64,000 nt of DNA from an uncultured virus (IMG/VR IMGVR_UViG_3300031088_000469) (taxonomy: Duplodnaviria; Heunggongvirae; Uroviricota; Caudoviricetes). Made by a program: the position numbers and the translations under genes. Below the pieces are notes generated by a model. The model made no database searches. It saw only the letters and a list, made by a program, of their open reading frames with translations, and was not told where the DNA came from. Positions 19,042-35,163 of this stretch are shown piece after piece (position 1 is the stretch's first letter; each line of letters starts with the position of its first letter). Where the stretch lies: the IMG/VR virus record IMGVR_UViG_3300031088_000469; one strand, given 5' to 3'.

Positions 19042-19118
19042 TGGTCGGAATGACAAGATTTGAACTTGCGACCCCCTGTCCCCCAGACAGGTGCGCTACC
19101 AAGCTGCGCCACATTCCG
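19042..19118 (-). tRNA. tRNA-Pro(GGG), CCA encoded
   Basis: Cloverleaf, anticodon GGG. Confidence 0.9.
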
Positions 19119-19147
19119 TTAGCCCTTTTGACGATAAGGGCATCGTT

Positions 19148-19223
19148 AGGGTGATCGACGGGAATTGAACCCGCAACCAACAGGTTCACGACCTGCCGCT
19201 CTGCCAGTTGAGCTACGAAAACC
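19148..19223 (-). tRNA. tRNA-His(GUG), two acceptor mismatches
   Basis: Cloverleaf, anticodon GUG. Confidence 0.75.
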
Positions 19224-19335
19224 ATACGCCAGGAAGCCTGGCTCTTGCTGTGTGAGCTTGTATTAGCCACTCACAGGCTCTGTGCGCCTCTCTCAGCGCC
19301 TAACATGTAGATGCTGAACAACGAGCCACAGAGAT

Positions 19336-19501
19336 TGGTGGAGCGCCGTAGACTCGACCTACGGTAACGGTACATCGCTGCCCGCTATTTCTCTCTTTGG
19401 CACTACTGCATTCGACATGATGTAGGTTACCGAAAGAACTGATGCCGCGTTCATGACTACTCCTGTTGTCAACAGGAAGGTTTCATGGACTCATTCACCC
19501 C
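19336..19501 (-). ncRNA. 166-nt RNA with Ala-type acceptor (G3-U), T-like arm and CCA end
   Basis: 5' GGGGUG pairs with 3' CGCUCC-ACCA; CCGUAG-GUCGAGU-CUACGG arm; two long internal hairpins. Confidence 0.55.
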
Positions 19502-19503
19502 TG

Positions 19504-19577
19504 TCGGAATAGGGGGAGTTGAACCCCCGACCTCTCGCCCCCGAAGCGAGCGCGCTACCAAGCTGCGCCATATTCCG
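19504..19577 (-). tRNA. tRNA-Pro(CGG)
   Basis: Cloverleaf. Confidence 0.9.
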
Positions 19578-19933
19578 TAAATCGCAACCAAGCCAGTCCG
19601 GTTTAACAGCCTTCATGGAAGCAGGGTTATGATCCCTGAACTATGCTCTTGATCACTGGTGGATTATCACCACTCTTGTCACTTGGGCGACCAGTCAAGT
19701 CACTTGCTGTCTTCCACGATGGGTACGCAGTATTCGGAATCTATACCTCACAAATCAGCAAGTCCAGCGAACACCCGTTAGGGCACTACCAGCAAGCTTA
19801 ATCGTCTCATCCGCTTGTGATTCGAGCCAGGCACTCAGTCTTCATCACCAGACATCGTTCTTTCCACGGTGAACGACCACCCTCATCGACTCATTTCCTT
19901 GATGACTAATCAAATCTGTCGATGCCTCCCCAG

Positions 19934-20006
19934 TGCCCCGTACTGGACTCGAACCAGTGACCTACTCTTTAGGAAAGAGGTATTCTATCCGCTGAACTAA
20001 CGGGGC
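19934..20006 (-). tRNA. tRNA-Arg(CCU)
   Basis: Cloverleaf. Confidence 0.9.
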
Positions 20007-20012
20007 ATATCG

Positions 20013-20483
20013 CTATACCGACTTCTGCCAAATCATGAAGTCGGTACCAACGTAGTAAACAACGTGCGGGTCCACATGAGTTGCCGTGAAACCAGACGTA
20101 GAGAGAATGTGTTGCATAGATGTTGAACCAGGATGAACACTTGCGGTGAAGTGCTTCGTCCCAGATGCCATAGCATCTTCAAGCAGCCTATCAACTATCA
20201 ATCGACCGATACCGTGACCCCTAGTGGATACGTAGACACCCGAGATATATCCGGACGTTACGTCAATGAAGCCGGTACCGACAATCCGCTCACCATCTCT
20301 CGCGATGAGGCAGATACTTGAATCCAATTTTGCAAGTACATCAGTAGGGCTGTACTCACCATCAAGCCATGCTCCAATATTGGGATGGTCAAGATGGGGC
20401 GAAGCGAGCGAAACACTGGCTACATGCTCGATAACAGAGTGAACATCTCCGACATTCATCGGAGTAATTATCAGATTGACCAA
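20013..20483 (-). CDS. GNAT acetyltransferase
   Basis: LIARDGERIVG...YISGVYVSTRGHGIGRLIV acetyl-CoA motif A. Confidence 0.8.
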   Translation of the reverse strand: MVNLIITPMNVGDVHSVIEHVASVSLASPHLDHPNIGAWLDGEYSPTDVLAKLDSSICLIARDGERIVGTGFIDVTSGYISGVYVSTRGHGIGRLIVDRLLEDAMASGTKHFTASVHPGSTSMQHILSTSGFTATHVDPHVVYYVGTDFMIWQKSV

Positions 20484-20511
20484 TGCAGCTTTCCATTTCG
20501 TTTACTTCGAG

Positions 20512-20584
20512 TGGATCTAAGGGGACTCGAACCCCTGACCCCCTGCATGCCATGCAGGTGCGCTACCAACTGCGCCATAGACCC
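20512..20584 (-). tRNA. tRNA-Ala(GGC)
   Basis: Cloverleaf, G3-U70. Confidence 0.9.
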
Positions 20585-20585
20585 G

Positions 20586-20657
<72 letters not shown>

Positions 20658-20904
20658 ACAACCGCAACCAAGGCTGCGTTGTGCATGTTGTCTAGACTAC
20701 TAGACCACGGTGTACCACCGGCTGATTTTTGATAAGACATTCTGCGCTAACAGCAAGTCAACGGGAATCAGAACCCGAAGAACCCAGAAGCTTCCACACG
20801 TAGGTGAGAAGACTTCTGAAAGTAGCAAGATTTTGTGTGAGTCCATGTGCACTGGGTTCTCATTTTGTACTTGCTGTTACCGAGAGATCCTGTCCCCGGC
20901 TCTG

Positions 20905-20977
20905 AGCCACCTAAGAGATTCGAACTCTTGACCTTCCGATTACGAAACGGATGCTCTACCAACTGAGCTAAGGCGGC
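20905..20977 (-). tRNA. tRNA-Thr(CGU)
   Basis: Cloverleaf. Confidence 0.85.
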
Positions 20978-21000
20978 GAAGCACCTTGCGGTGCCGATGT

Positions 21001-21210
21001 TTAGTCCTCGTCGTAGACTGAGAAGTCAAACGTTCGAGGGAACGGGGTGAGGTTATTGATGAAGGTGTCATCCTCCATGTTGTAAACCACACTACCCGCC
21101 CGGTTGGCAGTATTTTCGAGAATCTGACCCAACCTGAGTTGTGAGTTAGCCTTCCAATACCGACGTAGTTCGTCAAGTACCAGTTCGATGCGCTGTTCGT
21201 CTCTTGCCAT
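21001..21210 (-). CDS. small phage-type hypothetical protein
   Basis: MARDEQRIELVLDELRRYWKANSQLRLGQIL; GAGG RBS. Confidence 0.7.
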   Translation of the reverse strand: MARDEQRIELVLDELRRYWKANSQLRLGQILENTANRAGSVVYNMEDDTFINNLTPFPRTFDFSVYDED

Positions 21211-21272
21211 GTGTTCCTCTTCCGTTGTGTTTCTGGAAGCATACACCGTGAGAGCATTCATCTGGATGTAAC

Positions 21273-21348
21273 TGGTGCCCCCGACTGGACTCGAACCAGC
21301 GACCTTTACTTTCGGAAAGTAGTGCTCTATCCACTGAGCTACAAAGGC
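21273..21348 (-). tRNA. tRNA-Arg(CCG), CCA encoded
   Basis: Cloverleaf. Confidence 0.85.
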
Positions 21349-21399
21349 AAAGATGATAGCTGCTTCGTTTCCGACCTGACTATCACCAGTACTGTGTGC

Positions 21400-21771
21400 C
21401 TATCTAGGCAACGAGGTTTCGAGATACATCTTCTGCATCAATTCGGCAAAGAGTGCAACGAACTCGTCTTCGTCGAGAAAACCTGCGTAATCGTCACCTG
21501 TCACACCGTTCTTGAAAGTGACGTAATCACTCTCGGGTACATGCCGAGCAGGACGACCAATTGTCAGCGAAGCGCAGTCGCTTCTAAATCGGAAATAGAA
21601 CTGAGCATACCCAAGGTAAGTCCCTGTGGCTTGGAATGGTACTGCTCCACCAGCCCTCTCAAAAGAGAGACCAGGAAAGAGAGGTTCAATCCTGTCTTTT
21701 GCGACATCAATCATCTTGACAACAAGCTCGCTGTCATCGTTCTCATTCATATCTACACTGAGCATTGCCAT
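21400..21771 (-). CDS. hypothetical protein
   Basis: ORF with GAGGGG RBS between tRNAs. Confidence 0.7.
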   Translation of the reverse strand: MAMLSVDMNENDDSELVVKMIDVAKDRIEPLFPGLSFERAGGAVPFQATGTYLGYAQFYFRFRSDCASLTIGRPARHVPESDYVTFKNGVTGDDYAGFLDEDEFVALFAELMQKMYLETSLPR

Positions 21772-21784
21772 TCCCCTCTTTGAG

Positions 21785-21857
21785 AGCCGACTAGGGGACT
21801 TGAACCCCTAACCTACGCATTACAAGTGCGTTGCGCTACCAATTGCGCCAAGTCGGC
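21785..21857 (-). tRNA. tRNA-Thr(UGU)
   Basis: Cloverleaf. Confidence 0.9.
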
Positions 21858-21919
21858 ATGTTCTGCTACTGAGTAAACAGTAGCAGAGTTGATGGTGAGT
21901 TCCAAATTGAGTACCTAGC

Positions 21920-22129
21920 TCAATAGAACACATCGATATCTGCATACGTACTAGCACCCCCGCTTGACGTAACCATGATTTCTACCGCATTGGATAGACA
22001 CAGTTCGCAACATCCGACTTCTACCACCCTGGTATCGAACGAGATACGCTCTTCATCACCAACAGTGAATCCGTTTTCTCTCAGAATTTCTCTACCCCAT
22101 GCAATCAACAACGATGACGAATTCATCAT
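21920..22129 (-). CDS. small hypothetical protein (CxxC)
   Basis: 69-aa ORF with GGAAGG RBS. Confidence 0.5.
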   Translation of the reverse strand: MMNSSSLLIAWGREILRENGFTVGDEERISFDTRVVEVGCCELCLSNAVEIMVTSSGGASTYADIDVFY

Positions 22130-22198
22130 TCACTTCCTTCCGCTTGTGTGAACCAATATTCCACACGCTTGAAGGTTGTTATGTGCTGCTGATTAGCG

Positions 22199-22271
22199 TG
22201 CGCCTGAAGGGAATCGAACCCCCGACCTGTTGATCCGTAGTCAACCGCTCTATCCCCTGAGCTACAAACGC
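22199..22271 (-). tRNA. tRNA-Arg(ACG)
   Basis: Cloverleaf. Confidence 0.9.
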
Positions 22272-22374
22272 AATGAGCGAGAAATTCGAGGATCAGTTAC
22301 CGACACGCTCATGGGTAACCGCCTATTTGGACGAAGCTTTATACACGGTTGGTTATCGTCCATTGCAACCGTTG

Positions 22375-22447
22375 TGCCCTCGGCAGGATTCGAACCTGCG
22401 ACCAAGAGATTAGAAGGCTCCTGCTCTATCCCCTGAGCTACGAGGGC
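22375..22447 (-). tRNA. tRNA-Arg(UCU)
   Basis: Cloverleaf. Confidence 0.85.
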
Positions 22448-22523
22448 GGGATGAGAGGTGTGGTCCCTCTACCAAGAGCGTTGTTGAGGCACTCGAAGTA
22501 GTTTCAACAAAACCACACCGTCG

Positions 22524-22595
22524 AGCGGATGACGAGAATCGGACTCGCGACATTCACCTTGGCAAGGTGACGCTCTACCACTGAGCTACATCCGC
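22524..22595 (-). tRNA. tRNA-Gly(GCC)
   Basis: Cloverleaf. Confidence 0.9.
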
Positions 22596-22641
22596 ATGTG
22601 GTACTTACAAACCGCTGGTGACCCAGCAACTTGCAAAACCG

Positions 22642-22736
22642 TGGAACTGATCGGGATCGAACCGATACCTTCTGAAACGCGCGCCGCTCCTTGCTCTACC
22701 CGCCACTATTGCAAATGGCTATTGAGCTACAGTCCC
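22642..22736 (-). ncRNA. tRNA-Ala-like RNA with a hairpin inserted in the D loop and an unpaired anticodon arm
   Basis: Acceptor GGGACUG/CAGUUCC-A (G3-U70); intact T arm and D stem. Confidence 0.6.
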
Positions 22737-23058
22737 ATGTATTCGGAAGCTAGGAAGCTTCATATAGCTAGCTTACCGAATCCTAAAGGGTTTGTCTAGT
22801 AAACAGTGACCCATTAGTGGTAATGCTGTAACCCCACATTACTAGGGTGCTTACTCCATCGCCACTAATCGTCGCAGCTAAGGCGGGTAAAGCAAACCCG
22901 CTTCCCAGTTACTAGCTGGGAATCAGAGCCTCAGTGAGTTTGACTACTTCGATAAGCCACTACAGCTTCTCTCGGCAACCACTTTACTGAGGTTGAGGCT
23001 TGAATCTCCCCTCACATTGCGGTAGTTAGTCGCTATGCAAGAGCTTCATCAAGCTTTG

Positions 23059-23130
23059 AGCGGTCAAATGGACTTGAACCATCAACTCTTAGCTGGAAGC
23101 TAAGTTGCCATACCCGGAGGCTCTGACCGC
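23059..23130 (-). tRNA. tRNA-Gly(UCC) with atypical D arm
   Basis: Acceptor GCGGUCA/UGACCGC-U; loop CUUCCAG. Confidence 0.65.
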
Positions 23131-23208
23131 ATGTGGTCTTTTCTTCTTCTCGTACCCGGACTAGGAGACCTTACCTACCGGGACCATAATGGCTGATCAT
23201 TTCCATCG

Positions 23209-23280
23209 AGCGGATGACGAGATTCGAACTCGCGACCCTAACCTTGGCAAGGTTATGCGCTACCACTGCGCCACATCCGC
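23209..23280 (-). tRNA. tRNA-Gly(GCC)
   Basis: Cloverleaf. Confidence 0.9.
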
Positions 23281-23543
23281 ATGTCGTGATGCACCTAGCT
23301 TATACGATTTCATCCAACGCGTTTGGATTCTTCGTACTTACTAGGTACTTCACTATGGCGCTTTCATCCATATGCTTCATAATGAAGTCTGCGAGAGCCG
23401 AATTCCGTCTCGCACCCAGGTCCGCTAGCCCTGTTTCCGGTTTAGTCTATGCAACCCCTCTACTCCGGCAGAGTCCTAACTTTTCACTGCGGTTCACACA
23501 GAGGCGTTAGGAAGCCTTCACCGTATTTCCGGTGATGCCACAG

Positions 23544-23614
23544 AGGGGATGACGGGAATCGAACCCGCGACATCAGTTTGGAAAACTGAGGCTTTACCAT
23601 TAAGCTACATCCCC
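23544..23614 (-). tRNA. tRNA-Gly(UCC)
   Basis: Cloverleaf. Confidence 0.9.
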
Positions 23615-23757
23615 ACAGAGCCTAGCTCGTATTCATGAACAACCACTGCAAGAACTACCAAGCAGTCATTATCCTAACCGGCGACTAGGGTATAAACAGT
23701 ACACACGTATCCGCACTCGGGGTAGTTAGTCCCTAAACTTCAACAGCTTCTTGTTCG

Positions 23758-23831
23758 TGGATCTGACGCGACTCGAACGCGCAACATTCTCCGTGCAAGG
23801 GAGACGCTCTACCAATTGGAGCTACAGACCC
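23758..23831 (-). tRNA. tRNA-Ala(UGC)
   Basis: Cloverleaf, G3-U70. Confidence 0.9.
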
Positions 23832-24077
23832 ATGTGTTCCGTTTCCGCACGCTTGCAATCGTTTGGCATCAAAGGGAAGTAAGTCACGGAACACGAACCT
23901 ACCGACTGTGCCGTCCACGTGGGAAGACACCCTGCAATTATCTCAAGACCTTCATCGTTACATACCGCCTGTGTCACCAGGCGCTCCCGAATCGACGGGA
24001 GAATGTTCTTTACCAGATGTTTGACGACATCTGGTGTCTTGGTTTTTACCTAAGTAGACTAAGCTACGAAGATAAAG

Positions 24078-24151
24078 CGACCCTGACCGGACTTGAACCG
24101 GCGACCTCCGCCGTGACAGGGCGGCGCTCTAACCAACTGAGCTACAAAGTC
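24078..24151 (-). tRNA. tRNA-Asp(GUC)
   Basis: Cloverleaf. Confidence 0.9.
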
Positions 24152-24209
24152 ATATTTCTAATTACGCTGTTGTGTTGTAAATATCCGAACCTCTTGACGA
24201 GATGTTAAC

Positions 24210-24238
24210 AGCTTACACACCTTGTCTCCGCTTGTCAA
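24210..24238 (-). promoter_or_regulatory. SigA-like internal promoter of the RNA island
   Basis: TTGACA-17-TAAGCT. Confidence 0.65.
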
Positions 24239-24520
24239 GCCCATTTCCATAATTCCCGTCGAAACGAAAGATTACCCACGGTAGAGGTCATCGGGGAGCA
24301 TCCCAGCCAAAGCAGGGAGTTGATGAATCAGAAGGTTGGGGCGGTTCATCCCTACCGGGGTAGGGATTGGAATGGACGTGGAGGTCGTCAAGGTTCACCC
24401 CTTCCGTAGAAGGGAATGATTGGGTCTAACGGTCGCAGCGGATCATCCCTAGCGAACTAAGGAACTTCACAATGCGAAGGTCAGGGTGGAGCATCCCGTT
24501 ACCGGGAACCTCTTGCGAGG

Positions 24521-24596
24521 TGGTGACCGTAGAGGGATTTGAACCCCCGACATCTAGCGAGTCATGCTAGCGCTCTACCAACTGAGCTATACGGTC
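24521..24596 (-). tRNA. tRNA-Val(GAC), CCA encoded
   Basis: Cloverleaf. Confidence 0.85.
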
Positions 24597-24768
24597 ATGT
24601 AGCACCTATTTCGTCGGTTGCATACGTCGGACTTCGACCGATGAATTTCATGCCGTGCGCACACCATGAAATCCAGCACACAACAGCACCGTGATGCTGC
24701 GAGTCCCAATCTTAGCACATTGTCTGCTTATTGGAACCCTACCTCATCGGAGTAGTGATGAAGTTGAG

Positions 24769-24842
24769 TGCCCCCACTCGGACTTGAACCGAGGACCGAT
24801 GCGTTATGAGCGCACTGCTCTGACCTGCTAAGCTATAGGGGC
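24769..24842 (-). tRNA. tRNA-CAU (Met or Ile2)
   Basis: Cloverleaf, anticodon CAU. Confidence 0.85.
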
Positions 24843-24893
24843 TTGTAAGACAAGAGTAACAGGGGCTTTATGCTCGTGTCAAATCGAGCATCG

Positions 24894-24966
24894 AGGCGAC
24901 GACCGGATTCGAACCGGCATAATCTTCTTTTGCAGAGAAGCGGCTGACCTTTCACACCACATCGCC
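24894..24966 (-). tRNA. tRNA-Cys(GCA)
   Basis: Cloverleaf, U73. Confidence 0.9.
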
Positions 24967-25090
24967 ATGTTGCCTAACCCGCCAACCCTATGATTTCTCA
25001 TTTCCGTTGCTTGACTTCCCTCACGGACTGTTGTGGGAAAGTTAGGACTTCTGCGAGCGTTGCAACCTTACGTACCGGATACTCGCATTG

Positions 25091-25163
25091 CTCCTCCATG
25101 TGGACTCGAACCACAAACCTGTCGGTTAACAGCCGACTGCTCTGCCAATTGAGCTATAGAGGA
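25091..25163 (-). tRNA. tRNA-Asn(GUU)
   Basis: Cloverleaf. Confidence 0.9.
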
Positions 25164-25399
25164 ATATGGTGACCAAGACTAGGCTCCTGCTGAGGGAGCT
25201 TCCGACACCTTTCACCTAATCCAACTTCTCGGGCGCTTCGCCTACGCCATGTTTCAGTGACTGCATGATGAACCACATGCTACGGTTTTCGATAGTAAAA
25301 CGATTCCGAGTCGATACCTCCCGTTAGTCCTCTGTACACAAGGCGTGCGTGCTGCCAATTACACCACTACTATCTCATCGCTGGTATCCCAACGACTTG

Positions 25400-25472
25400 T
25401 ACCCCCGGAGAATTTCGAAATCTCGACCCGCGGATTAAAAGTCCGATGCTCTAACCTCTGAGCTACGGGGGC
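25400..25472 (-). tRNA. tRNA-Lys(UUU)
   Basis: Cloverleaf. Confidence 0.85.
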
Positions 25473-25624
25473 TTATTCGGTCGGTGAGCGACTTTGCAGT
25501 ATCCCTAGCCGACCTATTCGTTGACGAGGCACCAATCCCCTTTGTCCTACCCAGCACGCAACGAAGTACCCGTTCTGGTAGTGAGATCCCATCGCAGCCT
25601 GCAAAAGCTGTATGGAATCGGTCG

Positions 25625-25697
25625 TGGCTCCGACCGGCATCGATCCGGTGACCTCGCGATTTTCAGTCGTGCGCTCTACCAACTGAGCTACAGAGCC
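25625..25697 (-). tRNA. tRNA-Phe(GAA)
   Basis: Cloverleaf. Confidence 0.9.
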
Positions 25698-25842
25698 ATT
25701 TGGTGATAGGTCAGTGCAGTACATGCCTATCACTCGCCAGTCGCTTCGTTTCTGCAAGTTCCACGACTGGGTATTGCATTCTCCGCACACCGGAGAAAAC
25801 TAAAGGTATGAAACCCAGTGTTACTACCGACCTAAGCCGGAG

Positions 25843-25927
25843 TGCCCGTACCGAGACTTGAACTCGGATGGTCCGTAAGGACCGCTAGCACCTGAAGCTA
25901 GTGCGTCTGCCATTCCGCCATACGGGC
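25843..25927 (-). tRNA. tRNA-Leu(CAG)
   Basis: Cloverleaf with long variable arm. Confidence 0.9.
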
Positions 25928-25942
25928 ATGTGTTCAACCTAT

Positions 25943-26512
25943 CTATATTATTACGTCAGGTTTGTTGCTTTCGAATGACAAGATGTATTCAATCGCATTC
26001 TGCATGATTACAACATCATCATTGAAAAAACCTAATCCTACATTGCATCCATGACAAAGAAGACCTCTAACAGCACCAGTTTTATGCGAATGATCAATGC
26101 AGGGCGGCTTTCCTATCTCAGCGAAACCGGTCTTGCAAATCAAGCAAGCAAAGTCTTGGGCTACTAGCATAGCTTCGTACTCATGGTACAGCAGACCATA
26201 CTTAATAAGTATCTTTCTTGTACGCTCAGCCTCTGATGAAATAGACCACTCTACTCTTTTACTGTCTCGTCGGCATATCTTGCATCTGCTTTGGTACCCA
26301 TCGCCTCGACCTCTATTGAAGTCGAATTCAGATACATTCTTTACCAAACTGCATTTGCTACATAGCTTCGTAACCTTCTGTGTAGAAGTCTTTTTGTTCT
26401 GGTAAGACCTAGCACACTCTTTACATTTGGAACTGTAACCAGACTTCCTTGTTTTATCTGGATAGAAGTCTGACGATATTTTGTCTGTTTTACATTTGTA
26501 ACATCTGAGCAT
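25943..26512 (-). CDS. endonuclease VII-family (homing-type) endonuclease
   Basis: Two N-terminal CxxC repeats; KYGL...Y..ML..Q...CLIC...IDHSH.TG.VRGLLC..CN.GLG; visibly AT-richer than its flanks. Confidence 0.9.
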   Translation of the reverse strand: MLRCYKCKTDKISSDFYPDKTRKSGYSSKCKECARSYQNKKTSTQKVTKLCSKCSLVKNVSEFDFNRGRGDGYQSRCKICRRDSKRVEWSISSEAERTRKILIKYGLLYHEYEAMLVAQDFACLICKTGFAEIGKPPCIDHSHKTGAVRGLLCHGCNVGLGFFNDDVVIMQNAIEYILSFESNKPDVII

Positions 26513-26542
26513 TTGGCGATACTATCGCATCTGCTGAGTTAA

Positions 26543-26783
26543 TTCAATCAACCCGTAAGCCGAGTTCTGTTTTAGACTGTCATCTGTCTGAGCCGCCTAC
26601 CCGTCTTTCAAAGGGCGGCAATTCCCTCAGACTGTTTGGCGTTGCTTACATCCTGCACCCTACTTCTTAAGCTAGGCTTAGTGGTTCTTGAGCGACAAAC
26701 CAAAAGTTTGTCTACCACACGGTAATTGCCGAAAAGCTCGGACTTTCCTAAGGCTTGCGCCCTCGACAGTCCAGTTGATTGAA
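26543..26783 (-). ncRNA. rnpB: RNase P RNA, compact (about 240 nt)
   Basis: CR-I AGGAAAGUCCGAGC and CR-V ACAGAACUCGGCUUA (P4); P1 UUCAAUCAAC/GUUGAUUGAA; P2 GACUGUC/GACAGUC; P3 with GCAA loop; P6-like CGGCAAUU/AAUUGCCG. Confidence 0.9.
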
Positions 26784-26786
26784 AAT

Positions 26787-26930
26787 TGGGTGACTGAGCC
26801 GGATTTACACCAGCGACCTCATGAGCCGTATCCTCATGAACTTTGTTACGAGCGTGGTTATCGTCTCAACCCGAGACACTCGGTATGCATCCCAAGTGTT
26901 TGTCTTTTCGCCCTACAAGCTACCAGTCAC
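26787..26930 (-). ncRNA. tRNA-like RNA with greatly expanded D arm, ends in CCA
   Basis: GUGACUG/CAGUCAC acceptor; T-like arm GCUGG-UGUAAAU-CCGGC; 6-bp anticodon-like arm with 7-nt loop GAUACGG. Confidence 0.55.
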
Positions 26931-26931
26931 G

Positions 26932-27004
<73 letters not shown>

Positions 27005-27213
27005 TTATGCAGGATTTCCCGGTTACTACCCCGGTTTACCTGCGACTGGTGCCAGACCAGTCAACCGCTCTTGCGATGGTCCTGCAAGAGAAGGCGCGCA
27101 CTAGGGTATCCCGTAAGCGACACGGGGCAATTTCTGGTATTACTACCCTCCCGTTTGGCTGGGAGACAGCCTTTCTGCTAGTAAGGCAGAAACATTCTCT
27201 CGTTTCCGAGAAG

Positions 27214-27286
27214 TGCGCCTGGAGGGACTCGAACCCCCAACCTTTTCGTCCGTAGCGAAATGCTCTATCCGTTGAGCTACAGGCGC
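27214..27286 (-). tRNA. tRNA-Arg(ACG)
   Basis: Cloverleaf. Confidence 0.9.
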
Positions 27287-27485
27287 ATTGTGTGGGATTA
27301 TGACTCTTACCAAGGAGTCGGACACCCACGACGCTCTTCACGCAAGAACGCTAAACGGGACACGCGGTCACCTCGTAGTCCATAAGGGACGGTGTTAAAG
27401 CTAACCGACAACTAGGTTACTACGGAGAACCCTACCCTTGCACTTGGTGTGTGCGATTCATCTCACTAGCAGTACTACTAATGGA

Positions 27486-27561
<76 letters not shown>

Positions 27562-27761
27562 ATGTTGACGACTTAGAGGGCAGCTAATCATTTCTACTCC
27601 CATATCGTCTGATGAGGTTAACGCTCGGTACTCATCCATCTTGCGGCACCCTTGCAACCAAGGACCGCTAGATACCGCCGGTTTCCCTTTCGGGACGAAC
27701 ATGCTCCCCCGCGCTGGTCAAGTGATTAGTTTGCCAGTTATGCAGTTTGTCATGTTCCGAG

Positions 27762-27835
27762 TGGTCGTAGGTGGACTTGAACCACCGACCCCTTCGTTAT
27801 CAGCGAAGTGCTCTAACCAACTGAGCTATACAACC
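27762..27835 (-). tRNA. tRNA-Ile(GAU)
   Basis: Cloverleaf. Confidence 0.9.
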
Positions 27836-27956
27836 ATTGCCGCTTTCACGGCGTTTCCTCTATGTAGTTACCAAAGTGGTTCCTTGTTGATATCTCTACC
27901 TTAGCAACATGTTTGTGTTGTTGTCAAGTCCAAACGAGAAAAAGTTTGGAAGTGGA

Positions 27957-28042
27957 AACGGAGGCGGGATTTGAACCACTTATGCGCGTATGAAAGCCTC
28001 TAGGTTATGAGCCTAGCAAGATACCGAACTTCTTTACTCCGT
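27957..28042 (-). tRNA. tRNA-Met(CAU)-like with insertion at the variable/T-stem junction
   Basis: Anticodon arm identical to 28681-28754; extra nucleotides interrupt the 5' strand of the T stem. Confidence 0.55.
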
Positions 28043-28045
28043 AAG

Positions 28046-28120
28046 TGACGCATACGGGACTTGAACCCGTAACCTTCGCCGTGAAAGGGCGATGCAACTA
28101 ACCAATTGTGCTAATGCGCC
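28046..28120 (-). tRNA. tRNA-Glu(UUC)
   Basis: Cloverleaf. Confidence 0.9.
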
Positions 28121-28226
28121 AGAACTCTCAATACGAGAGCCTTTGCGGACTGGATACCGCGACCACGATGCAATCATCTGCCATTTCTCTTTGTCTCCAC
28201 CGGATTCCAGGAGAGACATTGAGCAG

Positions 28227-28300
28227 TAGGGATATGCGGACTTGAACCGCAGACCTCTTCGTTATCAGCGAAGCGCTCTAACCAACTGAGCTACACCCCT
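28227..28300 (-). tRNA. tRNA-Ile(GAU)
   Basis: Cloverleaf. Confidence 0.9.
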
Positions 28301-28399
28301 AAGTGGTTGCTCCGAAAAATCTCGACACAACCGGTATTGGCGAGAGATCTCTTCGTCACTTACGGTAATGAGCCGATAGTGATGATTGAAGAGGAAGCG

Positions 28400-28472
28400 T
28401 GGAGTCTAGGAGAATCGAACTCCTGACATCCTGCTTGCAAAGCAGGCGCTCTACCAACTGAGCTAAGACCCC
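28400..28472 (-). tRNA. tRNA-Ala(UGC)
   Basis: Cloverleaf, G3-U70. Confidence 0.9.
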
Positions 28473-28680
28473 GAACAAAACCGGCATTTGAGAAGTGCGT
28501 ATCTAAACTCGGGCTTCTCGCGGTAATCTCTTACCAATTCACCTGACCTCTCGCTTTCACGCTAGGTCCAACTCGCTTGCCGGTGTCGGAACAAACCTTG
28601 CGGTTCATGCCTAGCATCTTCTAGTTACAAGCAGAAGATGCTATCTATAAATCCCAGGTCTAAGACCCTTCGTTGTAACG

Positions 28681-28754
28681 TTGCGGGGGATGGATTTGAA
28701 CCACCGACTTCTAGGTTATGAGCCTAGCGGGCTACCGAACTGCCCTACCCCGCA
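28681..28754 (-). tRNA. tRNA-Met(CAU), initiator-like acceptor
   Basis: Acceptor UGCGGGG/CCCCGCA-A; lacks the three G-C anticodon pairs. Confidence 0.85.
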
Positions 28755-28815
28755 TCACTGTTCCTCGATACTAGCACAGAGGCTATGCTCTGCACAATGG
28801 TTCGTGGAAGATAAA

Positions 28816-28915
28816 TGGTCTCGCTGCGAGGATCGATCCCCGCACTGCCTTGGACGACAGCCAATGCCCGGGCGACTGGTAAGGGGATATCACTCCCTAC
28901 CGCACTGACTGCGAC
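28816..28915 (-). ncRNA. atypical tRNA-like RNA ending in CCA, with a GUC loop
   Basis: T-like arm with GAUCGAU loop; UUGG-CUGUCGU-CCAA arm; long hairpin in place of the D arm. Confidence 0.4.
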
Positions 28916-28942
28916 TGTACAATCTACGTCAGTAACCATAAG

Positions 28943-29016
28943 CACCCCGTACCGGATTCGAACCGGCATCTTTACACATATGTGCAAACGACATTCTCCG
29001 TTAGTCGCAACAGGGC
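28943..29016 (-). ncRNA. tRNA-like RNA with self-complementary 6-nt anticodon loop (CAUAUG)
   Basis: Acceptor, D and T arms intact; no 7-nt anticodon loop. Confidence 0.6.
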
Positions 29017-29095
29017 ACCTTCCGAGTCACTTTCATCTAGAAATCGGGCGACTCTTCAGTTGAGACGGCTAAGAGCCAGTGGCTCTCACCGTTTG

Positions 29096-29168
<73 letters not shown>

Positions 29169-29286
29169 ATGTGCTGCGCGAAGACTATCTGAGTAAGCTT
29201 CCTCATACGACAACCGCAGCTTGCGCCCCGCACGGAACAATCATCCCGCCGAACTTGAATCGAGACCTTGCAAAGCCTCTCAACCG

Positions 29287-29363
29287 TACCCCCAGATGGA
29301 CTTGAACCACCGCCTCCCGCCACACACGGACGAGCGCTCTGTTCTCTACTGAGCTACAAGGGT
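29287..29363 (-). ncRNA. tRNA-like RNA with distorted anticodon arm
   Basis: Acceptor ACCCUUG/UGGGGGU; T and D arms intact; loop GUGUGU. Confidence 0.55.
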
Positions 29364-29480
29364 ATAACTGGATACTAACCCGACCCAGCACAGGCATCAA
29401 ATTGTTCTACATGAGGTTTGATGAACTCGCGTCTTGTTCGTAACCCCGTCAAGCTTTAGGGGCATTGTTGCAACATTGCG

Positions 29481-29554
29481 TGCCAACTACCGGAGCCGAA
29501 CCGGTGACCTACTGCTTTTCAAACAGTCGCTCTGTCCAACTGAGCTAAGATGGC
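29481..29554 (-). tRNA. tRNA-Phe(GAA)
   Basis: Cloverleaf. Confidence 0.85.
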
Positions 29555-29682
29555 AAGTGGGTTGATTACGCCTCAGTAGTTCAACCCTGGTGCAAAAGAC
29601 CTCCTGAGGAAGGCTACGTAGTGTCTTTCGCTAGTTATCTAACCCTCCAATGGTTCCGGAGTGCGGAGTCTTTGGGTTATCG

Positions 29683-29756
29683 TGACGCTGACGGGACTTG
29701 AACCCGCAACCTTCTGGCTGAGAACCAGATGCAACTGCCAATTGTGCTACAGCGCC
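29683..29756 (-). tRNA. tRNA-Glu(CUC)
   Basis: Cloverleaf. Confidence 0.9.
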
Positions 29757-29965
29757 ATAACAACTTTTCGCATCAGGACGATTAGCCCCTGCATCTCACC
29801 AGAACTAACTAGTGCGGATTTCTTTATCCCATGCGATGTTGTGTTCCTAGTGTGGTCTATCAACCGGCTCCCTACACCGGAATCTCCCGCCCTCGGCGGT
29901 TGGGTTGGACTTTCCCTATTGACATGTGTTTTTCAGGAGACACTAGTACGTCCTGCACATTTACT

Positions 29966-29995
29966 ACCTTACAGTAGTAGCTTCTCTCTTGTCAA
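29966..29995 (-). promoter_or_regulatory. SigA-like internal promoter
   Basis: TTGACA-18-TAAGGT. Confidence 0.6.
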
Positions 29996-30021
29996 GTCGA
30001 AACAAGAAGTTTTTTGAAACG

Positions 30022-30096
30022 TAGCGCAGACGGGACTCGAACCCGCAACCTTCGCCGTGAAAGGGCGATGCAACTAGCCGATTGTGCTACTGCGCC
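30022..30096 (-). tRNA. tRNA-Glu(UUC)
   Basis: Cloverleaf. Confidence 0.9.
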
Positions 30097-30337
30097 AAAC
30101 ACTAAGCTGAGTATGACCAACTTAGGATGCCGATGGATACATCATCATGCGCAGCGGTCAGGTATTCACCCGACATTCCTACACAAAGCGTTCCACCTCA
30201 ATATCAGCAACCTCCGGCAAGAGGTTTCATACTGCTGTCCTAGGGGTATACGGGCTAATACCTAGGAACCCAAAATGACCTTACCGGGTCATCCCGTTAG
30301 ATGATGAGTGTAGTCAAGACCTTCCTCATCATCTTTG

Positions 30338-30411
30338 TCGCTCAGGGCAGACTCGAACTGCCGCATAACACCGTTATGAGCGGTGCGCCTTACCATCTTG
30401 GCTACTGAGCG
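30338..30411 (-). tRNA. tRNA-CAU (Met)
   Basis: Cloverleaf. Confidence 0.85.
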
Positions 30412-30561
30412 TCAGAAGTCCATCGTACTGTCATCACGACGTTCGATGGACCTGATTGGTGATGCATGATAAGCGTGCAATAGCAATCACCGGGCAACAT
30501 CATTACAGCAACGGCACTCATTGCAACTACCATTGCACCGGTAGTCCTGTAAATCAGTGCG

Positions 30562-30643
30562 TGCCCGATGAGAGACTTGAACTCTCACGTCCGAAGACAC
30601 AGGAACCTAAATCCTGCGTGTCTGCCAATTTCACCAATCGGGC
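30562..30643 (-). tRNA. tRNA-Leu(UAG)
   Basis: Cloverleaf with variable arm. Confidence 0.9.
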
Positions 30644-30647
30644 ATTC

Positions 30648-30973
30648 TGGTGGTCCCTAGCCGGACTTGAACCGGCACCTCCGCCATCCTAATCGCATAC
30701 GCTGGGCGGCGCTCTACCTAAACCCACCTTTACAAGCCTTCCAGTGCGTTACTGACCTCCGATAATCACCTTTGCTAGTTCTCGTCTTACTCACGCAAGC
30801 AGTGTCCCCACAGCCTGTCAGGGGTTTCGCCCGACTCCTTTTTATAGCTTATGCGATTGTTACCGTAAGCTCTTACTTGCGCTTTCTTCCGAGTTTCACA
30901 TCGGCTTTCTCTTTGGTGTTCACACACCTTGTTTCTTGCTCCAACACCAAGGGTTCATTGAGCTATAGAGAAA
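30648..30973 (-). ncRNA. about 325-nt tRNA-scaffold RNA with a roughly 240-nt D-loop insertion
   Basis: 5' UCUCUA-UAGCUCAA ... GGUAGAGC; CCGCC/GGCGG arm with 19-nt loop; perfect T arm; 3' UAGGGACCACCA. Confidence 0.65.
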
Positions 30974-31032
30974 ATCTAGGTCCAAGTGTCATCTTATGCT
31001 TCCTGGTAATCAGGGCTGCTTGAACTCTATTG

Positions 31033-31123
31033 CGGAGAGGGTGGGATTTGAACCCACGGTAGGATGTGACACCTACGGCAGCTTTCGAAACTGCTGCACT
31101 AAGCCGGACTATGCGACCCCTCC
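31033..31123 (-). tRNA. tRNA-Ser(CGA)
   Basis: Cloverleaf with long variable arm. Confidence 0.9.
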
Positions 31124-31296
31124 AAAACTCATGTGAAGCTATCGATGGGCAGTTCCTTTCGGAATACATCACCTGCCGTCAACGTCTGCCGACGTATGAG
31201 ACGACTCGATACCACTTCACACCATCCACAACAGCGATACCATGCTGTTCGACGACTTTCTAATCCCTTTTTGGTATCTGAATCAGAACATAATTC

Positions 31297-31371
31297 GGGT
31301 GGACGACGGGGCTTGAACCCGCGACATCCGGCTCCACAAGCCAGCGCTCTACCAACTGAGCTACGCCCACC
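31297..31371 (-). tRNA. tRNA-His(GUG)
   Basis: Cloverleaf with G-1. Confidence 0.9.
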
Positions 31372-31411
31372 ATATCATTGCAACAAGCCAGTCACGCCGG
31401 TTGCGAACCGA

Positions 31412-31531
31412 CGACGCTTGGGGATTCGAACCCCGCATACAATGATGTGCTGCAAGTTTTCGGCTTTTCGTAACCGCAATGGGGTTGCGCCCCATCAGCC
31501 CCTCTACATAGGCTGTGAACTTACGAGCGTT
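31412..31531 (-). ncRNA. tRNA-like RNA: acceptor plus T arm carrying a multibranch domain
   Basis: ACGCU/AGCGU acceptor; GGGGUUCGAAUCCCC T arm; GUAAGUU/AACUUGC stem enclosing three hairpins. Confidence 0.55.
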
Positions 31532-31804
31532 CTTTTTTACATCTGAACGGGCATCGATTGCATTCATTTGCCTCGGTGCTTGAAGTGATGGTGTATTCGC
31601 ACAAGGGTTCACATAACCCCTCCCTCAGATTTGCCGTCTGCGACGATAGGCTCCTAGGACCGATCCGGTGTACAAGTGTGGAAGAACGCCTCTAATCGCA
31701 TCTCTACGTTCTCAGTAAGACTCACCCATGCGATGCGATTTCTCTACATACCTTGCGGCGTACATGGAAGCCTTGCCTTACTGCAAGTACCCGAAGGTAC
31801 TTTG

Positions 31805-31877
<73 letters not shown>

Positions 31878-32074
31878 GTATGTCGAAAGAGTGATCAAAC
31901 CCTTCCGACCCGAAACAGCCGAAGCCATTCCGTAGATTTCCTAACGGGATCAACCGAAGCATCTTCTTGACGTAAGACACCTAGAATCGCAACGACTTAA
32001 ATTCAGTTCAATGTCGTCATAGAACAGCCATTCACCCAGGCTTACCGGGACTTTCGTTTGGAAGACGAGAAGTG

Positions 32075-32165
32075 CGGAATCGGAGAGATTTGAACTCTCG
32101 GAACCCTTTGAGGGGTTCGCCACCTTTCCAAGATGGTGCACTCGGCCAGACTATGCGACGATTCC
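32075..32165 (-). tRNA. tRNA-Ser(GGA)
   Basis: Cloverleaf with long variable arm. Confidence 0.9.
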
Positions 32166-32361
32166 ATAAAGCCTTTTCAGTAAAGACCGCGAGCTATTGC
32201 AACACGGCACCCCAACTGAGTCATCCAAGGCAATTGCTCCTTTCAGTGGTATCACCGCCGATGTACTTTCTGACGGTTAGCCAGAAGTTGCATCAACGGT
32301 GCTGAATTGAGCGAGGACTAAAATGTTCTCCCATACCAAGGGTTACTTAGATTAGCCTTTG

Positions 32362-32450
32362 CGGAGTCGGAGAGATTTGAACTCTCGGTACCCTTTCGGG
32401 TACTCCACCTTAGCAGGGTGGTGCACTAAGCCAGACTATGCGACGACTCC
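32362..32450 (-). tRNA. tRNA-Ser(GCU)
   Basis: Cloverleaf with long variable arm. Confidence 0.9.
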
Positions 32451-32522
32451 ATTTTGCTCAACCAACTTCGTTGAGCTTGTTTCCTCTTTTGTGTTTTCAA
32501 GATTCGTTGTTGCTATAAACCA

Positions 32523-32552
32523 ACCTTAGCAGGCTGGTTTTCCTTTTGTCAA
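32523..32552 (-). promoter_or_regulatory. SigA-like internal promoter
   Basis: TTGACA-18-TAAGGT. Confidence 0.6.
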
Positions 32553-32596
32553 GTCGAAACCGAAGTTTCTTTGACATTTCCTACGACTGTAGGTTG

Positions 32597-32669
32597 TGGA
32601 CGTTAGGAGATTTGAACTCCTGACCCCTGCCTTGCAAAAGCAGTGCTCTACCAACTGAGCTAAACCCCC
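32597..32669 (-). tRNA. tRNA-Ala(UGC), one acceptor mismatch
   Basis: Cloverleaf, G3-U70. Confidence 0.8.
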
Positions 32670-32685
32670 AAGGGCACAAACAGAT

Positions 32686-32841
32686 TTTACGTGACGGGAC
32701 TTGAACCCGCAAGGAGACTCAGTGTGATATCCATTTCTAGATACCCGCCTACTCCGGTGGATGTCGCCCAATGCTTTACAGCCCACCGGCTGTAAAGTTT
32801 AGGTGCTAATCCACTGCGTTTGCCAATTTCGCCACACGCTA
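32686..32841 (-). ncRNA. tRNA-Leu-like RNA with an 87-nt structured anticodon loop
   Basis: Leu-type D arm GCG-AAAUUGGCAAA-CGC; CAGUG/CACUG stem enclosing 32725-32811; perfect T arm. Confidence 0.7.
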
Positions 32842-32889
32842 CTGACTGTTTGTGAAAGGGAACGAGCATGTCTGCCCTATTTACCTTTG

Positions 32890-32976
32890 CGGAGCGGGTG
32901 GGATTCGAACCCACGGTGGTTTTACCCACGGCAGTTTTCAAGACTGCTGCACTAAGCCGGACTATGCGACCACTCC
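32890..32976 (-). tRNA. tRNA-Ser(UGA)
   Basis: Cloverleaf with variable arm. Confidence 0.9.
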
Positions 32977-33415
32977 ATGTTGCTGGTAACTTTCTTCGGT
33001 TCGGTCAGTTCCTTTCGGAATACATCAACCTTGCCGCTTACTTGTCTATAGTCTGACAGAACCCAGCGATTTTGTCAACCCAATCTTATCGCGGCTGATT
33101 GGGAGTACCGCATTACCTCACGACGGGATGCCTTCGCGTCTAAGTAACTCTCCTACCCTATGGCATCAGGATATTGGAGCCAGAACTAATAAGTCTAGTC
33201 GGGGCTGCTCACGTTCAGCAACCCCTCGGGGCTTTCACCCTATCCCGGTCATACCCTCCCGGTCTGGACTAAGGACTCTCACCTAAATATGTGCTCCTAC
33301 GTAGTCTGTTACCATGCAGACGACCCATGAATTGTGGATCGTGCCGGTATCGAACCGGAACTTCTCGTAAGTGGTAGTGAACAGCAAGGTATTGCTCCTT
33401 GTCAATGCAGCTTCA

Positions 33416-33907
33416 TTATGCTGCGCTGTCCTTTTCGAATTGACTTTCATATCTGGCAACGATTGATTTAGCCCATATATACAGGTCAAAAGCACGAACC
33501 CCCGAAGGCTGCGGTTTTGTCCATAGCTCTAAGTTTTCAATCCTGTTGTCATCCCTCACACCATTTTTGTGGTGTACATTCTCTCCCGGTAATAGATACC
33601 TATTAAGATGATCCTCCATAACCAGAATGTGTTCGAAAACGTATTTCCTTTGAGTGTGAGCGAGCCTTGGGTGTGTTGGCATCATGACCATAATGTAGCC
33701 CTTTTGATGCTTTGTTTTCCCACCTTTACGAAGTGGATACGCCATACAATCGACGCAAGCTTCAGATTGGCGATTGATAACAACTCCGCACGAACACGTC
33801 TTGTTATCTTTAGCCTTGCCAGCACTTGCTCGGCATTTCATACAAGTTGCATGCCTATCGTTTGGCATGCGCGCAAACTCTTTTGTACAGACTTTGCATA
33901 TTCTCAT
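33416..33907 (-). CDS. HNH homing endonuclease (HNH_3-like)
   Basis: GYIMV..P.HP...YVFEH.LVME..L.R.L...ENVHHKNG.RDDNR.ENLELW; AT-richer than its flanks. Confidence 0.9.
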   Translation of the reverse strand: MRICKVCTKEFARMPNDRHATCMKCRASAGKAKDNKTCSCGVVINRQSEACVDCMAYPLRKGGKTKHQKGYIMVMMPTHPRLAHTQRKYVFEHILVMEDHLNRYLLPGENVHHKNGVRDDNRIENLELWTKPQPSGVRAFDLYIWAKSIVARYESQFEKDSAA

Positions 33908-33961
33908 TTTGAGATACTAGCATCTCCAACAAACATCGAGCAAAGGTTGATCGATATCTCT

Positions 33962-34350
33962 TGGAGATGGCGGGAGTCGAACCCGCGTGTTGCTTGATAA
34001 GTCGAAATCTTCTACGTGCGTAGTCCATTTGGGGCGTTTATCGACTCTGGCGGGTTGGTATGGACACCGGCTCGCTATCGTCTAACTACCATGATTACGA
34101 TACTTGCTACCCAGTAGTTAGGCGGCGTATCGGATTCCTCTTTGCTGATGCCTAGTTCCTGCCGTGAATCATTCTGCAATTGGAAGCTGAGACAGACTCC
34201 TTAGAGACCCTCAGCGATTAAGCTGCGAGTGCGAAGTCGTTGCGAGATGCGTTTGCATTTCTTTTTGCCCGATGTGATTTACGTGGTCACCAGACAATCC
34301 ACGGCACGCTTCCTTTCGCCTGTATCAACCAGTCGAAACCAAGCATCCCC
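33962..34350 (-). ncRNA. ssrA: tmRNA, tag peptide ANASRNDFALAA
   Basis: 5' GGGGAUGCUUGGUUUCGAC; 3' GCGGGUUCGACUCCCGCCAUCUCCA; tag frame 34256-34218 ending FALAA-stop. Confidence 0.95.
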
Positions 34351-34530
34351 TTTGGTGGACCTCTTCACGGAAAGCCCTGAGACCAGCCAGCCCGAAGGCT
34401 CTTTGGACACCGCCTCTTTCGAGGAAAGAATATGTGAAGATGGGGATGATTCGATTACACGGGTTCATCCTGACCTTGATACATCAACACCCGGGTCATC
34501 TTCCTGACCGTTCTACTAGATGCTAATTCG

Positions 34531-34700
34531 ATTCCTTGGTGGGGCTTGAACCCACATTCTTGACTACCCGCTGAAGCAGGTCTGTTTTACCAATCTACGA
34601 ATTAAACTACAGCTACCACCAGGGTCGCTGGGAGGATTCGAACCTCCATCTCTTAAGACCTACATATCGTAGGCGCGCACCGCCAATGTGCTTCAAGGAA
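34531..34700 (-). ncRNA. twin tRNA: a circularly permuted tRNA nested in the anticodon position of an outer tRNA
   Basis: Two D arms and two T arms; outer acceptor UUCCUUG/CAAGGAA; inner loop-closed acceptor CAGCGACC/GGUAGCUG. Confidence 0.7.
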
Positions 34701-34722
34701 AAATTGCGGCGAAAACGCCTTG

Positions 34723-34795
34723 CTCCCCCACGTGGACTCGAACCACGAACCGTTCGGTTAACAGCCGAATGCTCTGCCAATTGAGCTACAGAGGA
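34723..34795 (-). tRNA. tRNA-Asn(GUU)
   Basis: Cloverleaf. Confidence 0.9.
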
Positions 34796-34853
34796 ATATG
34801 TCTGCGTAGCAATACCGACTCTACGGTACGATGCGCGTTACCACACCGTGAAG

Positions 34854-34926
34854 CTCCCCCAACTGGACTCGAACCAATGACCTAGAAGTTAACAGCTTCC
34901 CGCTCTACCAACTGAGCTATGGAGGA
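34854..34926 (-). tRNA. tRNA-Asn(GUU)
   Basis: Cloverleaf. Confidence 0.9.
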
Positions 34927-35089: not shown

Positions 35090-35163
35090 TCGGGGTGACA
35101 GGATTCGAACCTGCGACCTTCCGCCCCCAAAACGGACGCGCTACCAAGCTGCGCTACACCCCG
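35090..35163 (-). tRNA. tRNA-Pro(UGG)
   Basis: Cloverleaf. Confidence 0.9.

Follow-up and report, generated by a model that had tools for sequence, protein, structure and literature searches.

The window analysed here is a 64,000-nucleotide (nt) stretch of DNA from an uncultured virus (IMG/VR record IMGVR_UViG_3300031088_000469, filed under Caudoviricetes). It holds an island of 67 transfer RNA (tRNA) genes and one transfer-messenger RNA (tmRNA) gene, all on the minus strand, and inside this island lies a short gene for what, judged by its sequence and predicted fold, is a real RNase P RNA: it derives from the bacterial type A, and its reduced design is under selection (Table 1). RNase P RNA is generally viewed as a two-domain housekeeping ribozyme that is universal and chromosomal. 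A preliminary description of the window, made from the sequence alone, had placed a miniaturised RNase P RNA of about 240 nt in the tRNA island of a mobile element, with about 75 nt left where the specificity (S) domain should be. We arrive at the same location, at type A ancestry with loss of the canonical S domain, and at nearly the same sizes (243 nt, of which about 74 nt at 26723-26649 replace the S domain).

With cmscan and reporting by E-value, the RNaseP_bact_a model of Rfam (RF00010) matches the RNA from end to end (26540-26782, minus strand; model positions 1-367) with 79.2 bits (E = 3.8e-24 on a 931-nt stretch and E = 2.6e-22 on the whole window). This is the sole RNase P match of the window and its second-best Rfam hit. 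The preliminary description had proposed a covariance-model check, and the outcome is a match to the catalytic domain in which the S domain is replaced. The 243 nt compare with 367 positions in the RF00010 consensus, and the alignment retains helices P1, P2, P3, both strands of P4, P5, P15-P17, the GGGUA loop of L15, and the AGA..AUG segment of J18/2. The P4 strands, P1, P2, P3, a P6-like pairing and a segment like conserved region IV (CR-IV) had all been picked out beforehand, and all are found, on the minus strand. The RNA is 100% identical to a locus (L179) on a metagenome contig of 231,541 base pairs (bp), from which the window probably comes. By blastn, the RNA alone has no match among GenBank phages (E up to 10) or PLSDB plasmids (E up to 1), and a 1101-nt query around it finds matches limited to tRNAs and the endonuclease gene.

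Table 1. The mini RNase P RNA, its parts, and neighbouring features in the window
Feature	Coordinates	Strand	Basis or remark
Mini RNase P RNA gene	26540..26782	-	243 nt by cmscan; 26545-26781 with P1 as boundary; RF00010 match and family covariation
CR-I-containing segment AGGAAAGUCCGAGC	26749-26736	-	Read in sequence
P4 5' strand, within CR-I AGGAAAGUCC (26749-26740)	26737..26745	-	Partner 26557-26564
P4 3' strand, within CR-V ACAGAACUCGGCUUA (26570-26556)	26557..26564	-	cmscan and covariation
P6 pseudoknot 5' strand CGGCAAUU	26724..26731	-	Partner 26616-26623 in P17 loop
P6 pseudoknot 3' strand AAUUGCCG (P17 loop)	26616..26623	-	Covariation
P15-P16-P17 arm, L15 internal loop GGGUA at 26602-26598	26594..26641	-	cmscan; P15, P16 and P17 covary
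CR-IV-like segment AGACAGAUG (J18/2 equivalent)	26581..26589	-	P18 gone just upstream
Family-specific module of about 74 nt replacing P7-P14	26649..26723	-	Helices and invariant columns of 24-sequence alignment
tRNA island, 67 tRNA genes and one tmRNA	19042..38509	-	ARAGORN; Rfam
tmRNA, tag peptide ANASRNDFALAA	33962..34350	-	Rfam and ARAGORN; tag identical in sister contig
tRNA-like element, 143 nt	26787..26929	-	8-bp acceptor-like stem, T arm, 3' CCA
tRNA-Lys(ctt), upstream neighbour	26931..27004	-	Rfam, ARAGORN
Endonuclease VII-type homing endonuclease ORF	25943..26512	-	PF02945 (E = 2.2e-18); phrog_2633 (E = 5.1e-41)
tRNA-Leu(cag), downstream tRNA	25842..25927	-	ARAGORN
RtcB RNA ligase gene at island border	17147..18346	-	PF01139 (E = 1.9e-119)

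Relatives were collected with a search pattern of two P4 strands 145-175 nt apart, in which the three inner P4 pairs were left free. The pattern found 13 viral loci and at least 120 loci each in metagenomes and in genomes; among the matches listed, we parsed 116 loci from species-representative genomes and a further 130 that are viral or metagenomic. A MAFFT alignment of 24 members of the window's family, made without structural information, has a mean column identity of 58%. RNAalifold predicts 45 pairs on this alignment, and compensatory changes occur in 32. We also wrote out the expected architecture as 63 pairs (the type A fold with its pseudoknots P4 and P6, plus three helices in the module that replaces the S domain). 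Across the 24 sequences, 92.5% of the cells are paired, a level attained by 0 of 500 shuffles (70.5% paired), and if the 3' partners are slid by 1-3 columns, only 32-46% of cells are paired. Both sides change in 47 of the 63 pairs, and covariation supports each of P1, P2, P3, P4, P5, P6, P15, P16, and P17.

The covariation extends to features that the search pattern left free. P4 (8 pairs and a bulged U) is paired in 100% of cells, and all three of the pairs left free by the pattern covary. The P6 pairing proposed in the preliminary description is real: 7 of its 8 pairs covary, with 4 compensatory changes relative to a sister contig. Other hallmarks that lie outside the pattern are invariant, namely GCAA in J5/15, GG in L15, and AG...GAU in CR-IV. 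The GGU loop of L15, which is the docking site for the 3'-CCA in type A RNAs, is kept (CGGGUAGG at 26603-26596); G188 and G189 are invariant, and U190 is nearly invariant in the 24-sequence alignment and invariant in a 14-sequence alignment.

Could the RNA nonetheless be a pseudogene, a decaying fragment of a host rnpB that was captured recently? It does have large internal deletions relative to the 367-position model, and a homing endonuclease gene adjoins it. However, the deleted architecture is common to 24 diverged sequences on many contigs, with 47 of 63 pairs covarying, and a mean column identity of 58% argues against a single recent spread. The closest relative, which is the copy on the sister contig, has 85.5% identity to the window RNA. 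Of the 36 columns that differ, 25 are in paired positions. They make up 11 double compensatory changes and 3 single ones after which pairing persists, and 0 pairs are broken. Because none of these differences breaks a pair, a pseudogene can be set aside, and we give it almost no credence. The high conservation of the module that replaces the S domain also speaks against decay.

This module of about 74 nt has a 2-bp closing stem, a GUGG/CCAC arm, and a 3-bp stem capped by a 13-nt loop. The GUGG/CCAC arm continues through an internal loop into a distal hairpin whose length varies and which covaries. The 13-nt loop has the consensus ARCUUAARAAGYA, and ten positions in or next to it are invariant in the 24 sequences (A110, A111, C118, U120, A121, A122, A124, A125, G126, and A128). 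As the module is among the best conserved regions of the mini RNA, it is unlikely to be a relic; on the alignment, its strong conservation points to a specific retained function rather than a loosened constraint. Within the loop, the pentamer U-A-A-R-A would fit the U..RA signature of T-loop motifs, and the loop is possibly one T-loop-like docking motif.

The preliminary description had suggested that a reduced S domain relaxes substrate selection, which would suit many atypical tRNA-like RNAs nearby. This idea finds no support, and the high conservation of the replacement module argues against it. Its premise about the substrates fares no better: 66 of the 67 tRNAs called by ARAGORN in the window exceed the Rfam tRNA cut-off, so the substrates would be mostly canonical, and there is just one clear tRNA-like element that goes unrecognised.

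That element (26787-26929) has a large insertion in place of the D and anticodon arms and a predicted fold of -49 kcal/mol (z = -2.47). It has no ARAGORN or Rfam call, and it is not in the sister contig. It ends 5 nt ahead of P1 of the RNase P RNA. On the other side, the endonuclease VII open reading frame (ORF) is an insertion relative to the sister contig, and it separates the RNase P RNA from tRNA-Leu in the window; in the sister contig, tRNA-Leu directly follows the RNase P RNA, 18 nt past the P4 core. A tight fit between tRNAs is also seen elsewhere in the family. The flanks of 19 of the 24 family loci hold 125 tRNAs, all of which are on the strand of the RNA and none on the opposite strand (the remaining five loci are free of tRNAs within the short flanks available). 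At three loci (L115, L204, and L140), the following tRNA begins 17-18 nt past the P4 core, a few nt past P1, and at seven loci the preceding tRNA ends 30-51 nt ahead of the P4 core, directly before P1.

A member of the family is present in a cultured phage, which can be studied safely in the laboratory on Microbacterium foliorum. Among eight GenBank phage records that we tested with RF00010, Microbacterium phage Zooman (OK040793.1) has an end-to-end match at 89338-89558 (53 bits, E = 1.4e-16), which is below the 100-bit cut-off, and the other seven (Cece, Pumpernickel, Grayson, LR745208, Genie2, TunaTartare, and Hendrix) have no match. The RNA fills an unannotated gap between the end of tRNA-Arg(ccg) at 89340 and the start of tRNA-Arg(cct) at 89556 (locus L393, 1497-1724), and the tRNA array of Zooman lies between ThyX and RtcB, in the same order as in the window. 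The Zooman RNA aligns throughout with the window's family, with only the distal hairpin missing, and it forms 53 of the 63 window-derived pairs when these are mapped with MAFFT. In our reading of the alignment, the misses would mostly be alignment shifts, and CACA/UGUG would pair in P15. There is thus an annotation gap: mini RNase P RNAs fall under the Rfam cut-off and are unannotated even in the genome of a cultured phage.

The window's family is not the only reduced form in such a setting. At least two further, differently reduced designs occur in dense tRNA arrays on viral or metagenome contigs (L116/L237/L247; L123, L143, L150, L181, L238, and L242), with up to 22 tRNAs in 3.2 kilobases (kb). 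Full-length RNase P RNAs that are flanked by tRNAs are also found on viral contigs (L075, L068, and L007/L017). Because three RNase P-carrying contigs (G007, G016, and G017) have a Terminase_6N gene, there are true phages among the carriers. (One of these, G016, is 49.8 kb long and 98% complete, and combines a differently reduced RNase P RNA design with its terminase gene.)

The sister contig (G005 in our set; IMG/VR, 202,737 bp, class 'provirus', CheckV 96%) matches the window collinearly over the window's full length, at 66-90% identity. Its RNA genes comprise 64 tRNAs, a tmRNA, and an RNase P RNA of its own, which scores 84.9 bits, below the 100-bit cut-off. Among its protein products are a replisome, ribonucleotide reductase, topoisomerase II, NAD ligase, NAMPT, RtcB, and a CCA-adding enzyme; the last two fit a set of tools for maturing and repairing tRNAs. 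An actinobacterial host is suggested by two further products, WhiB and DUF2637. The tag peptide of the tmRNA appears actinobacteria-like. Further genes of the sister contig (loci L375 and L379-L382) encode two T2SSE proteins, T2SSF, a prepilin peptidase, an AAA_10 ATPase, and the type I-E proteins Cas3, Cse1, Cas5, and Cas6e, and ESM Atlas gave leads to a TrbL-like protein (0.87) and a ParA/TadZ-like protein (0.93), which we treat as leads only. No capsid, portal, tail, or terminase gene was recognised among its 161 ORFs of at least 110 amino acids with PHROGs and Pfam, and six-frame searches with PF05065, PF03237, and PF03354 found nothing. In tblastn searches against phages, two large ORFs of the window had no match and a third had only weak hits to hypothetical proteins. 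From this gene content, the sister contig may be a conjugative megaplasmid that was misclassified as a virus. The element in the window would be a jumbo phage or a conjugative megaplasmid, and "element-encoded" is the safe wording.

The lack of recognised virion genes in the sister contig also bears on another explanation: the mini RNA could be the ordinary chromosomal RNase P RNA of a bacterium with a small genome and a reduced form of the RNA, as in the Candidate Phyla Radiation (CPR), and the "element" would then be the genome of a cell. CPR bacteria do have small RNase P RNAs (Lui et al., 2021, PMC8172020). In four Dojkabacteria genomes, we found one RNase P RNA each, of 231-261 nt and with RF00010 scores of 87-134 bits. 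These resemble the mini RNA in size and in scoring near or below the cut-off, but each is the cell's only copy, and they are reduced in the opposite way: the core of the S domain is kept and P15-P17 are lost. For this reason we rejected a CPR-type host as the origin of the mini form. Among the matches listed, the window-type module (as an nhmmer model) is present at 27 of the 130 viral and metagenome loci versus 0 of the 116 genome loci, where all 27 are members or duplicates of the family on which the model was trained. Homing endonucleases, PHROG families, and an array of 64-67 tRNAs with a tmRNA would be an abnormal layout for a chromosome, and Zooman carries a family member. Overall, a chromosomal origin seems very unlikely. 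In its favour, two window-type mini RNAs (L170 and L176) lie on metagenome contigs of 885,359 and 883,042 bp, which may be from a cell, a giant element, or a misassembly. The flanks of L170 have pilin-like genes and no tRNA within 1.5 kb, and pilin-like motifs are all that we found in the flanks of the two loci.

What does the RNA do? On the strength of its fold and setting, we think it likely that it is a functional, element-encoded RNase P RNA of type A descent that uses the RnpA protein of the host to mature the element's own tRNA precursors. The absence of rnpA from the window, noted in the preliminary description, extends to the other carriers: no Ribonuclease_P Pfam domain was found in 53 ORFs of the window (nearly all ORFs of at least 100 amino acids), and six-frame searches of 18 carrier records for RnpA (PF00825), including the 96%-complete sister contig, did not find it. 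As no RnpA gene was found among the window's ORFs or on the carriers, either host protein or activity of the RNA alone must be assumed. Dependence on host RnpA, with the mini RNA as an active ribozyme subunit, is the probable case.

The layout next to tRNAs suggests that the RNA is transcribed within a long minus-strand tRNA precursor and released by 3'- and 5'-end processing. The cuts that free the adjacent tRNAs would also free the mini RNA: the 3'-end cut of the upstream tRNA or tRNA-like element on one side and, in the relatives, the RNase P cut at the next tRNA on the other. The mini RNA would then team with host RnpA, and the holoenzyme would remove 5' leaders from the tmRNA and the 67 tRNAs that the element encodes. 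The benefit might be extra processing capacity, or independence from the host's RNA subunit, during a burst of tRNA expression.

Several observations count against an active enzyme. First, 79.2 bits is less than the curated gathering score of 100 for RF00010, and the window RNA is therefore missing at the gathering threshold (at gathering thresholds, Rfam reports the tmRNA and 64 tRNAs in the whole window and no RNase P RNA). Second, in the cmscan alignment P18 is absent (24 model positions correspond to 0 nt) and the S domain, P7-P14 with CR-II and CR-III, is missing (about 140 model positions give way to unaligned sequence), and truncations of the S domain or P18 reduce the activity of engineered RNase P RNAs. 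Third, CR-I of the Zooman RNA is GGAAGUUCC where GGAAAGUCC is expected, and CR-V has changed to match, so that two universally conserved P4 pairs are altered with compensation (A-U to G-C and G-C to U-G). Fourth, only 6 of the 67 tRNA calls end in CCA, so the GGU loop of L15 would be usable only after CCA addition.

The data on expression cut both ways. In favour of an active enzyme, the locus is present in RNA libraries: of the 24 runs that contain words of 25800-27300, 23 are recorded as RNA (metatranscriptomes), and these share a single habitat and, almost without exception, a single year, which makes one campaign the probable source. Contigs from four metatranscriptome runs each cover all or nearly all of the RNase P RNA (X1, 26485-27202; X2, 26286-26773 and 26783-26959; X3, 26457-26908; X6, 26560-26952); three of the runs show 0 differences, and the fourth shows 1. 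One contig, 718 nt long, runs from the beginning of the endonuclease ORF across the RNase P RNA and the tRNA-like element, takes in tRNA-Lys, and stops just short of tRNA-Arg. On the other side, these contigs do not show strand or ends and DNA carry-over is possible, so they establish presence in RNA libraries and not a discrete transcript; differences in depth between the RNA and the neighbouring ORF, and stretches without coverage, are uninterpretable. Because a scan for promoters and terminators around the gene gave no signal above chance, we infer its mode of expression from the layout.

Some of these points would also fit a conserved look-alike that is not catalytic. Such an RNA could act as a decoy, by titrating host RnpA or by competing with the RNase P RNA of the host; tRNA maturation in the host would then slow down, or the protein would be redirected. 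Alternatively, its role within the tRNA operon could be structural or regulatory. Both P18 and the canonical S domain are gone, the score is under the Rfam cut-off, two universally conserved P4 pairs are changed in Zooman, and, with no rnpA on the 18 carrier records, the RNA would have to compete for the host protein. We nevertheless consider a look-alike improbable. With 67 tRNA genes of its own, the element needs RNase P activity raised rather than lowered. Also, hallmarks that would be useless to a decoy are invariant or covary (the bulged U of P4, GCAA in J5/15, GGU in L15, and CR-IV), and each P4 change in Zooman is compensated, which leaves the helix intact.

If the RNA is functional, then the family has broader implications. 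We regard as evenly balanced the proposal that mobile elements of bacteria (large phages and giant plasmid-like elements) carry a distinct class of RNase P ribozyme, in which a compact 74-nt module, possibly with a T-loop-like motif, stands in for the domain that reads the tRNA elbow, and which would be excised from a tRNA precursor by the enzymes that process tRNAs, itself perhaps among them, and free the tRNA supply from the host's RNase P RNA. Such independence would be useful, for example, under host RNA shut-off or against defences that target tRNAs. The translation toolkit of large mobile elements (tRNAs, tmRNA, RtcB, and the CCA-adding enzyme) would then also include the catalytic RNA of an enzyme that is essential to the host. 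With the canonical specificity domain gone, a naturally conserved family would also be a natural experiment on the minimal RNA for recognising and cutting pre-tRNAs.

How do known RNase P RNAs compare? The type A RNA (RF00010; M1 RNA, or rnpB, of E. coli) shares with the mini RNA P1-P5, the P6 pseudoknot, P15-P17 with the GGU of L15, CR-I, CR-IV, and CR-V, and RnpA would be the partner of both. The mini RNA differs in being on a mobile element in a tRNA array, whereas a typical rnpB is a single chromosomal gene. The type T RNase P RNA of archaea in the Thermoproteaceae (Pyrobaculum) is functional with a drastically reduced or altered S domain. The RNase P RNA of Mycoplasma fermentans lacks P12 (PMC8172020). 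Either could at most be likened to the mini RNA in how it works, as these belong to an archaeal lineage or are cellular housekeeping genes and are not mobile.

Additional copies have been described in mycobacteria. Homologues of RNase P RNA with altered S domains are annotated in Mycobacterium austroafricanum and M. sp. YC-RL4; they adjoin an endonuclease gene, horizontal acquisition has been proposed for them, and the authors left their function open (Behra et al., 2022, PMC9569102). By that description they resemble the mini RNA in being extra copies in an actinobacterial setting with extra tmRNA genes. Unlike it, they are in cellular genomes, and the available part of the report describes no family, covariation, tRNA array, or phage members (PMC9569102). 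According to a 2026 paper, giant linear plasmids of M. avium carry tRNA array units, for which a role against tRNA-targeting defences was proposed (PMC12803027). The arrays of phages and actinobacterial plasmids are similar to the window's in being large, on mobile elements of Actinobacteria, and sometimes accompanied by a tmRNA (PMC12803027). In contrast, RNase P is not mentioned in the paper on the M. avium arrays (PMC12803027), and the window's array adds the RNA subunit of the enzyme that matures tRNAs. In the literature open to our search (subscription journals and bioRxiv supplements lay outside it), we found no paper on an RNase P RNA encoded by a phage or plasmid.

Other genes in and around the island of the window encode a dUTPase, ThyX, RNase H, a UvrD-type helicase, a D12 methylase, and a sortase. 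Genes for homing-type endonucleases (endonuclease VII and HNH) are scattered in and around it, at 25943-26512 (minus strand), 18474-18971, 9448-9984, and 33416-33907. One of the tRNAs called by ARAGORN, at 36718-36790 (minus strand), has an undetermined two-base anticodon and scores only 40.1 bits with Rfam. Finally, two proteins of defence type, one with a DruA-like (Druantia) domain (10209-10949, plus strand) and one with a GmrSD N-terminal domain (53189-53860, plus strand), are both kept in the sister contig.

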